Position numbers and translations under genes: made by a program | From: a virus | Taxonomy: Duplodnaviria > Heunggongvirae > Uroviricota > Caudoviricetes | Length of the DNA stretch: 42,138 nt | Strand: one strand, 5' to 3' | Virus record (IMG/VR): IMGVR_UViG_2737471818_000002 | Coordinates: 1 to 42,138 of that record | Shown: positions 8,547-17,752 of the stretch, in pieces | How positions within the stretch are numbered: the first letter of the stretch is position 1 | How the letters are laid out: every line of letters starts with the position of its first letter | The notes under the pieces: model-generated | What the model was told of the DNA's origin: nothing | What the model saw: the letters and a program-made list of their open reading frames with translations, nothing else | The model's database searches: none

Positions 8547-10664
8547 CTATTCATATTCATTCATACCGCTTAACGAGGCGACAATACCAGCTCTCGACAA
8601 GCGATTGAATTCATCGCTACCAATAGCATCGCGTATTGCTTTTACGGCGGCTTTATTTGCCATAAATCTGCGTTCCGCCGCCGCTAATGCTTCTTTACTT
8701 CCGCCAGCTCTTACTGCTTTCGTGGCTTCCTGAACTGCTTTCTCTATCGCATATCGGCCGCTACGCGTGGTGGCAATTTTAGATACAGCACCTTTTAACC
8801 CGGCGCCAACTAAAGCACCTGCGGCAGCGCCTGCAATGCCCCCTCCTGCTCCACCAACAATGGCACCTGATGTTGAGTTGGCAATTGCATTTAACACTGT
8901 TGATGTGACGTTGGATAAACCGGCATCCAGATCGCGTAGTACATTGGCAGTTCTCCCTGTTCTTTCAATATACTGCTGAGGTTTCACTGCTGCTCTTGCA
9001 AGAGTGCCATATGCATCAGCAATTCTTCCGAGTTCTGAGGAATATCTGCTAATGGCTTTTACATTTTGTGGGGTAAGTATCCCTGCGATATGGTTAATTC
9101 CTGCTGCATCAGCTTTGCCACCACGTACACCATGCGAGATAGCATCTTGCAACATTGATGATATAGCAGGAACACGCTCTGATTCTGGCAGCGCGCGGAT
9201 CATAGAATGGAACCCAGCAGGACCATTAAGACCTTTAGCTGACGATGATTGAAGGGATTTTACTCCATTCGTAATCAGTGCATCTGTTGCCAAATCACGC
9301 CCGAAAACAGACTCTGCACTCTCTTGTGCTGATAACCTCGCTTTAGACAGATCATTAGCTTTCTGCCAGTCATCAAGAAATCCGCCGTTTTCCGCCATTG
9401 TGCGCATATCATCAGTAATTGCCCGGCGTATTTCCCCTGCTCTCCTTGCCGCATTTGCCTCTCCGCTACGCTTATATTTTTGCTCCGCATCAGCAAATTT
9501 CGCTCTCCATGCTTTCATGCCATCAAATGTTACTCCACCTTGATTGTTTGCCTGAACAAACTGTTTCATTTCAGGAGTAAGCGGTATGCCAGCAGATCGC
9601 TCTGCCTGAATAACGGCATTACCATTTAGCATTCTTGCTTTTTGATTTGGCATTGTTGACCGCACGTCATCCCATGCCGCGCGCTCGGCATCCTTCATCT
9701 GATCAAGATTTTGAAGAATCCTTTGTTTTATAGCCGCACTTTTTTCTGATGCCGTTCCAGATGCGGCCCCAAATTCATCAAGGTTTCGACTTAACTTTGA
9801 TGATATTTCGTTAAATGCTGCCTGATGGGCGTCCTGAACAATTCCTGGTGTTGATGCCAATGCGCCTTCGGCTTGTGCAATTCCACGACTTCCAGATCGC
9901 ATTCCTGGTGTTAATGCGTTTATATCAATTCCAGCAGACTCAGCCGCTTTTGCTACATCTTCGGACACATTAGCGGCCTGACTGGCAATTGACTGACGCC
10001 CAGCACCTGACTTTGCCATCCTGGAAACATCATTAGCAGAATTCAGTGCTGCACCACCAAGAGCCTGTGAAACCCTTGGCGCAATAACGCGCCCGACACC
10101 TGAAAGAACGCCTTGAGCACCAATATTGATACCACCGTTAATGGCAGCATTTTGTGCAAAGTCGCCATCCTGATTTGCAGCATCAGCAAGAGAACCTGCA
10201 ATCATGTTTCCTGCGGAACCGATATCTCCAGCGAGTTTTGCTGGCGCTCCAGCAGCTTTTGCCGCTGTGCCAATTGGCAGGAGATACCCACCAATTGTTT
10301 CACCGGCTTGCGCATAAGGGTCTGTCGGTCGATCGACTGGACGATAGACATCATCCAAAACCTTTGGGCCACCAAGCCCCTGGCTGATTGCATTAATCAG
10401 ACTTGCGCCACCCTGCAATACGTCAAATGGTATGTTTACCAGACCACGACCAGCCTGTTCTGCAATTTGCCCTGCGCTTTGACCACCAGTGAGCCAGTCA
10501 GTGGCTTTTCCTACCAGAGATTGTTCTTCTGGCTGCGATTGGTTTTGAGTGGATTGATCACCAGAAGACAGCATCTGAGCAATGCGACGTGCTCCTTCTG
10601 TATCGCCTGCCGCATCAGCGTTCCTTAATGCTGTCATCAACTGTTCACGACTATAGGCCATCAC
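8547..10664 (-). CDS. Internal virion/DNA-ejection protein (P22 gp16-like)
   Basis: 705-aa Ala/Gly-rich protein in the conserved P22 order position after the gp20-like gene. Confidence 0.55.
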
Positions 10665-13924: not shown

Positions 13925-15342
13925 TACTCAATCCTTATCTGGCAGCCAGACAGAGTGACAGGTGACTTCGTGATAACGCGCAATTTGAAGCCAATGTTTT
14001 TCCTGATGCGCCCTACTTTCTTCCACAAAACGCGTTTGTCGTAAACGAACGGTTCATTCTGCTCAATCATCTGCTCACGACCATAATTTATGCCGTCAGT
14101 GGTTGCAGAGAGGAACAGGCGGTCAGCATACTGCGCAACTCCAGTTGACGATTCAACTTCAAGGTCGAAAACTCTGGCGTTATCCGCTTTGAACAGAGGA
14201 GTAAACAGCAGATGTTCCTGTTGCTTGTCGTACTGGCTGCTGATATCGAACTGCAATTTCCCGGTAACCGATTCCAGCTTATCGCCGCACGTTATCTGAT
14301 TGCCTTCGTAAATGAAGTCGATAGCGCGGTACACATCGTCATACAGACCTGTTTTCAGCACACACCATTGTGGGCCATTGACGCTTGAAGATGCGTCGTA
14401 CACGAGGACGTGACGCGGAAGGTGGATAATCAGCAACTCATGAGCATCAAATCGCAGCGATTCCATCACACCATCAGCCAGTTCATCAGCAGTGTAGGAG
14501 CGGAGGATTTTCTCAATGCTCGCGCTGGCAATTGGTGACACCTGACCGGAGCCGATGATATACACAGACGGCGCACCCGTTGCCGGATTGCTGATGAACG
14601 CATACGAATCAGCAAACGGCGTTTTGCAGTAAGTCCCGGCAATACCTTTCTGTACCATCAGCGATGGCTGTGCGACATACAAAGCAGCACCAACGGTGGT
14701 TGCACCAGTCAGGGAGAAATATTCAATCGTCGATGAACCAAAGCAGACGATGAAGTCTCGCCATGTTCCTATGCCGATGATGCCATCAGGCTGAGACTCG
14801 GCACGATATTGTGCACTGTAGCGGTCAGGATGCGATTCGTCTTCAAGGTCAGTGATAAACCATGAATCAGTGCCGTCTTTTGACCACGCATAACGCCCAC
14901 GTAAGCGCGTAATGTCACGAACCGAACCTAACTCATACTGCGTAAACCCGCTGTCTGCAGGCCAGTTTGAGACGGTTTTAACCGTGCCATCATAGCGGTA
15001 TTCGACCAGTTGCCCGTTAACGCCTACCGCCTGTGATGTTCGACCATGCGCCATTGATACGCGACCACTTCCGGCAACATCACCGACTTCACTTTCGCCT
15101 TTGTACAGCTTGCCACCACACACGCGATAAACAGCACTCTGCGCCATGTTGTACTCGACGCCGCGAGATACACCGTTCACATCAGATCGTTTGGCAATGC
15201 CCGGGAATGAGCGAAGATATCCGCTGCTGTTAAGGATTTCTTTTGGTGTAGCCAGCATATTCACTGGCAGATAGTCGATATAGTCGGCGTTTCGAAAGTC
15301 TTTGCCGACACCTTTCATAAGCGGAAGTTGCTGAATCGGCAT
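13924..15342 (-). CDS. Tail hub protein (P22 gp10-like)
   Basis: 472-aa ORF, the same length as P22 gp10, in conserved order between gp4 and gp26. Confidence 0.7.
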
Positions 15343-15842
15343 TATTCGCTCCCGTTATCGCAAGGTTCCTTTCGGTGGAAGTAATTCCAACCATTCCACT
15401 TCGCCAACTGGTTACCGCTACCAACAGGCATACGGTTTGGATAACCGGACTTACATTTAGCGGCTTTTGCTCTGTCCATTGCAGACAGTTTGACGAGTCG
15501 CTCTTTCCCGTATCTGGCAGTGGTTATAAGTTTTGCAGACGCTTCCAGCGCATAATCCGGAGCAATGCGGCAGGCAAGGTTGAAAATGACGGCATTGATA
15601 GCGTTATTTGATAAACCGTGCTCATCGCCCGGATCTGGAGCGACATCTGCATCAGCAAAAATGTAGCCAACGTTGATACCAGGTGACGCATCACCGCCAA
15701 GCCATTCAGCCATCATCATTTCAAGGTCGTTGACGCCGTCTTCCATAGACTGCGGTTCGACATCTGTTAACGTGGCATTTGATGCCACACCGAGCTTACG
15801 TAATGCCGCAAGGACTAAATCACCCTTCGTTGTCAGGTTCAT
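15342..15842 (-). CDS. Tail adaptor protein (P22 gp4-like)
   Basis: From internal Met ([21 protein letters not shown]...) the 166-aa product matches recalled P22 gp4. Confidence 0.8.
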
Positions 15843-16413
15843 CTGCTGCCGCCTTAGGTTTTCGACCAGGCTTTTTACGCTGTTTTTCTTCTGGCTCTGG
15901 CTCTGCAATAGCCGGACGCAAACTCAGGAGTCGTCCAAGAACATCATTTGCTTCATGACCATCCCACTCTTTCCCGAACTCAAGCTCAGTACCTTCAGGA
16001 AGGAACTCGATTTCTTCAACAGGTAGGTGATAAGTGATTTCGCCTTCTGGAGTGGTGATACCAGCAATGATCCAGCCATCCCACTCTTCACCGTCACTGT
16101 GTTTGCGAGACCACCACGAAAGCTCAGCGTAAGCATGCATCAGCGATGAGAAGAGGCGCACTCGGTGAGCGTAAAGCTCGTTAAAAGTGTGATAACCGTC
16201 GGACACTTCGCCCATATCAACTGGGGAAGTTTCACCTCCGCCAACACTCCAAATTTGATCACCAACAAGAGGATCATCAGGAACATCGTCAGGGTGCTTA
16301 TACCAGCCATTTGCTAAGTGCACAGCTACATCATCAGGATCAACGGTTTTCGTTTTCAGCTTGCGCCCCCAGATTTTGGTATCTCCGCCAGCCTGAAAAA
16401 TCATTACGCTCAT
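15820..16413 (-). CDS. Hypothetical acidic protein encoded between coat and tail-adaptor genes
   Basis: 197-aa ORF from ATG at 16413 with GGAG RBS, directly downstream of the coat-gene terminator; Asp/Glu-rich with basic C-terminal tail. Confidence 0.45.
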
Positions 16414-16426
16414 TGGTATCTCCAAT

Positions 16427-16448
16427 AGAAAAGGGAGCCGAAGCTCCC
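16427..16448 (-). terminator. Intrinsic terminator after the coat gene
   Basis: GGGAGC-TTCG-GCTCCC hairpin followed by UUUU on the minus strand, just after the coat stop codon. Confidence 0.55.
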
Positions 16449-16456
16449 TCTGGTTA

Positions 16457-17752
16457 TCACGCGGTCTGGTTAGGCAGACCAACACCAATTGCCTCTGGTC
16501 GTACAGCACATGCTGAATACCACACAGCAATACGGCACTTACCAGACAGAGTGTTGATATCACCCTGCGTTGCGAAGATGCCGTTAACACCAATACCAGG
16601 AATGCTGAAGGAAGACGTTTTCATGCCAGCAAACAGTTCATGGGTTACCGGGATCGGCTGAGACAGCAGACGGATTGAGTCATCAGCCCAGAACACGTTA
16701 GCGGTGGTTGTTGCCACGTTCAGAACGTTTACCGGAGTGGTATCAGCAAGAGAGGTGTTTACGTTAGCGTAAGCCTTCTCTTCTTTTGTCAGTGACGCGT
16801 CATCCAGCGCAATCGGCTTCGGCGTGATTTCGATGTGAGTACTATCGATCACACGGGTGATTGAGAAAGTTGCATCATCAGTCAGCACGTTCTTCGCCAT
16901 CTGAGACAGGAATTTCACACCAGTGAAACTGATTTTGTCGCCGCGCTTAAATCCGGTGGTGGAGGATACGGTCACCGTTGCAACACGGTTGTCGACGTTC
17001 TCTTTGTTACCATCGGTATCAAGGGTGTATGCCTGCGGCTTAAACTTCTGCGCACCAGAAACAGTTACACCAGTAGCGGTTGACTTGGTAACTGCCGGAA
17101 GTTTCGGTGAGCGAAGAATTTCATCAAAGCCAGCAATCTGACGCTGAATAGTACCGTTGCGATACGCGTCTTCAGGAACGCGCCCAAAGATGTCACCATC
17201 TACCAGGTTGCGGCCTGCTTTGCGGTAATCGTCAGGGTTCAGGAAGTAACTGATGCCCATATCGCGGTTTAGCTCACGGGAGAACATCAGGCGCTCTGCA
17301 TCAGACACAAAATCCCAGCCAGACAGGCCAGTAGATGGACCAATTGCGCGGGTATCGTGAACAACAAGTGAGCCCATTTCGGTTGCCTGTTTGGCAATTG
17401 CTGACTCAATGTTATTCGCCAGTTTTTTGGCGGATGCCTGGATGCGGCGACGGTAAGAACGCTCATCACGCAGGTCATCTGCACGAAGCTCGAAGAAATC
17501 GTTATCCGGATCGCCCATGTTGCATTTCACGGAGAGTTCCAGAATCCCGGTTGCGTTGCCAGTTAAATCCCAGCCAGTCTGGGTTGGCGCTTCCTGCTCA
17601 ACAGGCATCCACACGGTGTTGCTTGAACGCTGCATGGATTCTGCCGGAGGGGTGTATTTTGTCACTTTGGACGCCATTGGCGTCAGGTTCTGGACGGTTT
17701 CGATGATTTCATCCAGAGCATACGTGACCAGTTGACCTTCATTTAATGCCAT
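16457..17752 (-). CDS. Major capsid (coat) protein, P22 gp5 family
   Basis: 431-aa ORF; sequence highly similar over its length to recalled P22 coat protein (MALNEGQ...[14 protein letters not shown]...). Confidence 0.95.

Follow-up and report, generated by a model that had tools for sequence, protein, structure and literature searches.

Gene content of the locus

The window (the whole stretch of DNA analysed, 42,138 nucleotides) was found to be an entire P22-like prophage integrated beside a tRNA-Arg(CCT) gene (1009-1083), with its morphogenetic genes on the minus strand. Between the genes for the coat protein and the gp4 tail adaptor lies an ATG-initiated ORF that runs from 16413 to 15820 and whose translation gives a product of 197 amino acids followed by a stop codon, with a mass of 22.1 kDa and a pI of 4.68 (Table 1). 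The original prediction had placed here a 197-aa acidic ORF with its own ribosome-binding site, just past a coat terminator. This description was borne out, as the coordinates, the low pI and a GGAG motif are all present and a strong hairpin was found 3' of the coat stop codon.

Judged from its sequence, the ORF is a genuine gene rather than a chance reading frame, since its product matches the WDGH family (Pfam PF25311) with 134.8 bits against a gathering cut-off of 27 (E 1e-39, with model positions 1-97 of 97 aligned to residues 68-165) and phrog_3769 over its full length (E of about 1e-100; Table 1). In alignments, the equivalent methionine was the start of all homologues. A longer 257-aa version of the ORF with a TTG start codon (16593) was considered and rejected, as it overlaps the coat gene, the homologues begin at the ATG and it is the ATG that the ribosome-binding site precedes. 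At its other end, the ORF was seen to contain the ATG of the gp4 gene (15842) within its final 23 nt. The gene is already known and has been annotated under two names, WDGH domain-containing protein and epsilon34 gene 6.

Table 1. Features at the junction of the coat and gp4 genes, with their positions in the window, strand and supporting evidence
Feature	Position	Strand	Evidence
P22-type coat (major capsid) gene, 431 aa, upstream neighbour of the ORF	16457..17752	-	PF11651 P22_CoatProtein, E 3.4e-165
Hairpin, 9 bp, AGAGGGAGC-UUCG-GCUCCCUUU then UCUAUU, between coat stop codon and ribosome-binding site	16430..16451	-	RNA fold
GGAG ribosome-binding site, 6 nt 5' of the ATG at 16413	16420..16423	-	Sequence reading
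ORF, orf69 / epsilon34 gene 6 family, long form with WDGH domain	15820..16413	-	phrog_3769 full length, E 1.2e-100
N-terminal domain, aa 1-45, beta-hairpin and helix	16279..16413	-	pLDDT 88-97; common to P22 orf69 and short forms
Acidic linker, aa 46-66, poorly conserved	16216..16278	-	pI 4.05; length varies among homologues
WDGH domain, aa 68-165	15919..16212	-	Absent from P22 orf69 and IME10/Louie short forms
C-terminal segment, aa 166-197, Glu-Pro linker and then basic-then-acidic tail KKPGRKPKA	15823..15918	-	Tail conserved in P22 orf69, ST64T and the IME10 short form
gp4 tail-adaptor (head-tail adaptor Ad3) gene	15342..15842	-	PF11650 P22_Tail-4, E 1.1e-58; phrog_637

Hairpin of the coat gene and expected expression

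The 66-nt stretch carrying the hairpin (16405-16470) was calculated to fold with -20.9 kcal/mol (z = -2.45), with equally good folds obtained in 0 of 200 shuffled sequences. The hairpin is identical in phages IME10 and Louie, and has counterparts in the P22 record, where a stem-loop is annotated, and in the Sf6 record, where it is annotated as the terminator 't coat'. It can be categorized as a 't coat'-like terminator or an mRNA-stabilising stem-loop. A simple terminator scan missed it because its stem absorbs part of the T run. The hairpin is an element of the coat gene, and phages that do not possess the WDGH domain have it as well.

A crude consensus scan of positions 15200-17000 identified no sigma-70-like promoter on either strand, and no terminator lies between the 197-aa ORF and gene 4, as these two genes overlap. 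The gene would be expressed as part of a late operon under Q antitermination, being transcribed by read-through of the post-coat hairpin, with translation of the 197-aa protein driven by its own GGAG site. Because its stop codon is located 23 nt within gene 4, ribosomes that finish translating it would probably pass on to gene 4, so that the translation of the two genes would be coupled.

Architecture of the protein

The protein is modular. Every allele has an N-terminal domain of 45 aa and the tail KKPGRKPKA, and a WDGH domain of 100 aa is an optional part between them. Two linkers flank the WDGH domain, one acidic and the other composed of Glu-Pro, both being flexible. An AlphaFold2 model built from an alignment of 55 sequences (mean pLDDT 85) showed residues 49-63 of the acidic linker (pLDDT < 50) and the C-terminal tail to be disordered, with residues 66-165 forming a well-defined alpha/beta fold (pLDDT > 95).

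Both ends of the protein are related to P22-like protein families, with residues 1-48 matching phrog_1175 (E 8.3e-9) and phrog_3769 (E 1.3e-19), and the last 46 aa matching phrog_1175 (E 1.6e-6). The N-terminal domain follows the pattern M..I/L.....G......G...................GW..HP, with M1, G9, G16, G36, W37, H40 and P41 conserved in the alignments. The tail follows the pattern K/R-K-x-G-R/P-K-P-K-A..D, with K177, R179, K180, G183, K185, P186, K187, A188 and D191 invariant.

The WDGH domain possesses both signature motifs of its family, namely SDGYHTFxELYxHR (S71-R84) and WDGH (W150-H153), which are invariant or nearly so in alignments of 55, 42 and 65 homologues. Approximately 15 polar or aromatic residues within its 100 aa were found to be invariant or nearly so, this set comprising S71, D72, G73, H75, E79, Y81, H83, R84, H105-x-D107, Y128, H129, W150, D151, G152, H153, D157 and R161. 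Residues H75, E79 and H83 are spaced i, i+4 and i+8 and lie on one face at the start of a long helix. This pattern of conserved polar and aromatic residues suggests a putative ligand or metal site.

A sequence search of the PDB with the 197-aa protein returned chance matches only (E > 0.2), and all significant Foldseek matches in BFVD were to WDGH-type or unnamed proteins, with none of known function. PADLOC and NCBIfam returned no match for the protein. A 2H phosphoesterase (H-x-T/S-x twice) was rejected by inspection, with the corresponding motifs here reading H-T-F and H-L-P.

Comparison with P22-like relatives

It had been predicted that the ORF was an extra gene, as gene 4 was held to follow gene 5 directly in P22. 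The P22 genome (NC_002371) is annotated differently, with a stem-loop (6102-6119) and orf69 (6135-6344) lying between these two genes. P22 orf69, of 69 codons, overlaps gene 4 exactly as the ORF of the window does, and alignment showed its product, a member of phrog_1175, to align with the first ~50 and the last ~17 residues of the window protein, the part in between being absent. As orf69 is homologous to both ends of the ORF, only the internal WDGH segment is extra. It had also been allowed that the ORF might turn out to be an unannotated conserved gene of P22; a conserved P22 gene is essentially what was found, although orf69 is annotated in that phage. According to Villafane et al. 2008 (PMC2629481), the P22 copy has an internal deletion, has no known role and is not essential under laboratory conditions, with its dispensability for plaque formation attributed to earlier work (Eppler et al. 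1991, cited in PMC2629481).

Full-length homologues of 186 aa occupy the same slot in Salmonella phages, these being epsilon34 gene 6, ST64T Orf-186 (ST64Tp56), ST104 ORF54 and SE1 orf56, which share 60-63% identity with the window protein over their full length (60% for epsilon34 gp6 and 63% for ST64T Orf-186). All share with it the coat-hairpin-gene-gp4 slot, the three-part architecture and membership of phrog_3769. The layout of the slot, after the coat-gene hairpin, on the same strand and with the 3' end overlapping gene 4, is the same in P22, ST64T and epsilon34. In contrast to these Salmonella long forms, the gene of the window represents an E. coli allele whose linker is longer (197 versus 186 aa in total) and whose neighbouring coat and gp4 genes are of the type of E. 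coli phage IME10. It is with near certainty that the gene can be assigned, in both identity and architecture, as a full-length allele of this P22-like family.

The short forms of phrog_1175, which are found in P22 (orf69), in IME10 and Louie and in many E. coli prophages, share the slot, the N-terminal domain and the KKPGRKPKA tail but differ in having no WDGH domain. They range from 69 to 98 aa, the chief difference among them being how many Glu-Pro (GAGCCA) repeats they contain. A profile of the short form gave 462 matches, of which the best 120 were all of 74-98 aa and derived from enterobacterial genomes and metagenomes, with E. coli as the main source; Salmonella, Klebsiella and further Escherichia species contributed some, and a large number came from unnamed assemblies. 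No other cargo domain was found on the orf69 scaffold among these best 120 of 462 matches. The number of GAGCCA repeats accounts for the spread in length from 74 to 98 aa.

The long and short alleles occur within otherwise very similar genomes. Phages IME10, HZ41, APC_JM3.2, CurroJimenez, Louie and Dewey, whose coat and gp4 genes are the most similar ones, share 97-98% DNA identity with the window on both flanks of the ORF but not across it, and the coat and gp4 genes of IME10 and Louie are 98% identical to those of the window. IME10 and Louie carry an 88-aa short form, which in IME10 is unannotated and consists of the N-terminal domain, (Glu-Pro)n and an identical tail, the DNA for the tail being nearly identical to that of the window. 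When the DNA of the window is aligned with IME10 and Louie, identity extends across the coat hairpin, disappears, and is restored exactly at the GAGCCA repeats, of which there are 2 copies in the window (~15890-15906) and 8.7 in IME10 (L002, 2092-2143). This array, forming the right-hand boundary of the long/short identity, may be a hotspot for recombination or slippage. The long form with these flanks was identified, identical or nearly so, in 42 of 5426 complete E. coli genomes.

It was observed that the IME10 annotation of 'gene 4' begins too far upstream, so that the GAGCCA repeat is read in another frame as SQSQSQ (L002, 1544-2149 and 2022-2336). This mis-started gene leaves the real short orf69-like gene without annotation, and a 188-aa TTG ORF in the window (15342-15908) is the same artefact.

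The original prediction had offered an accessory moron as one of its readings. The accessory nature of the gene stands, as the P22 version is reported to be non-essential and the WDGH segment is present or absent between 98% identical flanks, but the gene is not a moron in the classical sense, as no promoter-like site was found and the slot is always filled by the same gene family. Presence in some close relatives and absence from others, as would be expected of a moron, was seen for the WDGH-containing segment only (IME10, Louie and others being without it), and a promoter and terminator belonging to the gene itself were not found.

Sf6 gene 6 and HKbT of HK620 are likewise small ORFs situated between an annotated 't coat' terminator and a homologue of gp4, but they encode proteins of 61 aa of the unrelated family phrog_3251, with no WDGH domain. 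A small gene thus fills the slot in every case, that of the orf69 type coming either with an inserted WDGH domain or without one. As a genome feature the gene is ordinary, being a member of a known, annotated and dispensable P22-like family, and dozens of sequenced E. coli genomes have copies nearly identical to this one.

Distribution of the WDGH domain

An exhaustive profile search with WDGH identified 4594 clusters at 50% identity (E <= 0.001), with proteins ranging from 109 to 570 aa. Among annotated phage records, 198 were found to carry the domain, these being of phages of Listeria (54), Bacillus (45) and Salmonella (35), with the rest infecting Streptococcus, Lactococcus, Klebsiella, Arthrobacter and other hosts. 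These included myo-, sipho- and podoviruses with unrelated capsids, and in the contexts examined the genes were mostly outside structural modules. In Klebsiella phage SJM3, Bacillus phage Nate (where it adjoins a NADAR gene) and Listeria phage LP-064, the WDGH gene lies within an array of small early or accessory genes, and in Staphylococcus phage phiSP119-3 (near a methylase and a dUTPase) and Streptococcus phage Javan272 it lies in a post-replication accessory region. A WDGH gene was also found in the head module of Streptococcus phage phiARI0378. In the literature, no biological use of the term 'WDGH', no mention of PF25311 and no experiment on any WDGH protein was found.

Domains fused to WDGH

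When 107 multi-domain WDGH proteins were scanned against Pfam, the sole partners identified were Sequestin / crAss001_48 (PF21825, seven proteins), Tad2-like (PF11195), Lar restriction alleviation (PF14354) and DUF551 (one protein each). Recognisable partners were confined to ~9 of the 107 proteins, and evidence from fusion is circumstantial. One of these proteins, P0101 (265 aa; L008, 8001-8798), has the order Tad2-WDGH-Sequestin, and its gene is flanked in a prophage by the lysis cassette on one side and the terminase-portal genes on the other; from its domain order, it looks like a multi-target counter-defence fusion.

Tad2 and Sequestin have both been shown experimentally to be sponges for Thoeris signals, with proteins of PF21825 sequestering 3'cADPR, and Sequestin was itself discovered by way of unknown domains fused to known sponges (Tal et al., bioRxiv 10.1101/2025.07.12.664507). 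As WDGH is fused to validated sponges in the same manner in which Sequestin was found, it can by analogy be regarded as a candidate counter-defence domain. WDGH, a small, phage-specific and modular domain, is found within fusions of the multi-sponge kind described in that study (Tad2-Acb4 and Tad2-Sequestin; Tal et al. 2025), in the arrangements Tad2-WDGH-Sequestin and X-WDGH-Sequestin. The window protein differs from these fusions in possessing neither Tad2 nor Sequestin, and the conservation of WDGH, with its many His and Asp residues, is more enzyme-like than that of the helical Sequestin sponge. The window protein has no homology to a validated family of signal sponges or degraders (Tad1/2, Acb1-5, Sequestin or Lockin), its only Pfam match being to WDGH. 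Identity of WDGH with Lockin or Acb5 was considered and rejected on the grounds of fold and distribution; Lockin was not found by its authors in complete phage genomes, and Acb5 occurs mainly in actinophages (bioRxiv 10.1101/2025.07.12.664507).

The value of the gene is as a pointer to WDGH, a large (~4600 clusters at 50% identity), strongly conserved and uncharacterised domain that has been found sandwiched between two proven anti-Thoeris sponges. The interest of the gene rests on this concrete lead, namely WDGH as a candidate new anti-defence module. The long and short alleles that occur naturally in near-identical P22-like phages offer a ready isogenic test bed for its function.

Proposed role and alternative explanations

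The reading preferred here, to which a probability of roughly 45% is assigned, is that the ORF is the full-length allele of a resident, dispensable P22-like gene, encoding a late-expressed, non-structural accessory protein whose WDGH domain probably acts against host defence. The WDGH domain would most plausibly do so by binding an immune signal derived from nucleotides, such as those of Thoeris or CBASS, or by hydrolysing it in a metal-dependent manner, hydrolysis being considered because of the dense invariant His, Asp and Glu residues of the domain. Taken by itself, an anti-defence function of the WDGH-containing protein, proposed by analogy with its fusion partners, is tentative and has somewhat less than an even chance of being correct, and the more specific proposal that WDGH binds or hydrolyses an immune signal is doubtful. 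The N-terminal domain and the tail, which are conserved even in proteins that have no WDGH domain, fall outside what this model explains.

Anti-defence genes are typically expressed early, and late expression is unusual for them. The protein of the window would be made during the accumulation of structural proteins, known triggers of such systems. Structural proteins have been described to trigger signalling defences, as with tail fibres for type II Thoeris (bioRxiv 10.64898/2026.06.04.730250), so that, speculatively, co-expression of an anti-defence protein with late proteins would not be absurd. A bolder form of this proposal is that WDGH (PF25311) represents a previously unrecognised and very widespread family of phage counter-defence proteins, either enzymes that destroy or sponges that sequester nucleotide signals derived from TIR or CD-NTase proteins, which has been slotted into a small late gene beside the coat gene so as to be made together with the triggers, or even delivered with the virion; in this full form it is considered unlikely, at something under one chance in three.

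A role for WDGH that has no relation to immunity is a less likely alternative, in which the domain would be an enzyme or binding module of nucleotide or nucleic-acid metabolism or of host takeover, carried as a dispensable accessory of the late operon. The dense invariant His, Asp and Glu residues (H75, E79 and H83; H105-x-D107; H129; D151-G-H153) would suit such a module, the neighbours of WDGH genes elsewhere include dUTPase, methylase, nucleotidyltransferase and NADAR genes, and most of the fusion partners of WDGH are unknown domains. However, every fusion partner that could be recognised, with the exception of DUF551, is an anti-defence domain.

The preferred reading also takes the protein to be non-structural, which is very likely in view of where WDGH genes lie in other phages and of what is reported for epsilon34. 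This phage carries the long form of the gene (60% identity to the window protein), and gels of its virions differ from those of P22 only in gp13, the tailspike and a 15-kDa band of Dec (PMC2629481), Dec being encoded elsewhere, by gene 71 (PMC2629481). It is improbable, although less so than a decorating role, that the protein is a low-copy factor associated with the virion or its assembly, with the N-terminal domain and basic tail tethering it to the portal/gp4 vertex or to DNA and with the protein serving either as an assembly helper or, with WDGH as its cargo domain, as cargo delivered into the next host together with the DNA. Such a factor would be in keeping with the location of the gene, which in all P22-type phages is fixed between the coat gene and those for head completion, its translational overlap with gene 4 and the conservation of the N-terminal domain and tail regardless of WDGH; KKPGRKPKA appears to resemble basic nucleic-acid-binding peptides, the WDGH gene of phiARI0378 lies in a head module, and late timing would suit a packaged anti-defence cargo. 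The P22 version is nonetheless reported to be non-essential and the epsilon34 gels have no additional band (PMC2629481), although a few copies per virion would escape such a gel; furthermore, most WDGH genes elsewhere lie in non-structural regions, and the best 120 orf69-like proteins carry no alternative cargo domain.

A decoration or head-stabilising protein, the first suggestion of the original prediction, has in its favour only the position beside the coat gene and the acidic composition, and is very improbable given that no sequence link and no fold match to decorators of the gpD, Soc, Hoc, Dec or Psu type was found, that the known decorator Dec, encoded elsewhere, is the only extra band in virions of the long-form phage epsilon34, that the segment does not co-vary with capsid type, 98% identical coat genes occurring with and without WDGH, and that WDGH occurs in phages whose capsids are unrelated, for the most part away from structural modules.

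Additional features of the prophage

The ends of the window (1-2402 and 40891-42138) were found to contain a host gene of the formate/nitrite-transporter family (1-933) and the integrase gene (1209-2402), with a host permease gene of the LacY family at the far end. A cassette for O-antigen conversion, consisting of gtrA, gtrB and a serotype-specific glucosyltransferase gene (2556-5295), adjoins the integrase gene, with the gene for a 630-aa tailspike beside it (5327-7219). This tailspike possesses the P22 head-binding domain (PF09008) and a receptor-binding part that has no assignment. Two ORFs of 121 and 178 aa (7659-8544), with no Pfam match, lie between the genes for the tailspike and the ejection proteins, at the 'ant moron' position of P22-like phages, and a 705-aa ORF with no Pfam match is situated at the position of gp16 (8547-10664). 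In the relatives Louie and Dewey, the scaffold and coat genes are separated by a gene for an HNH endonuclease that is encoded on the opposite strand (L003, Louie 3671-4198), and its location represents a second site of variable insertion in a head module that is otherwise 97-98% identical.
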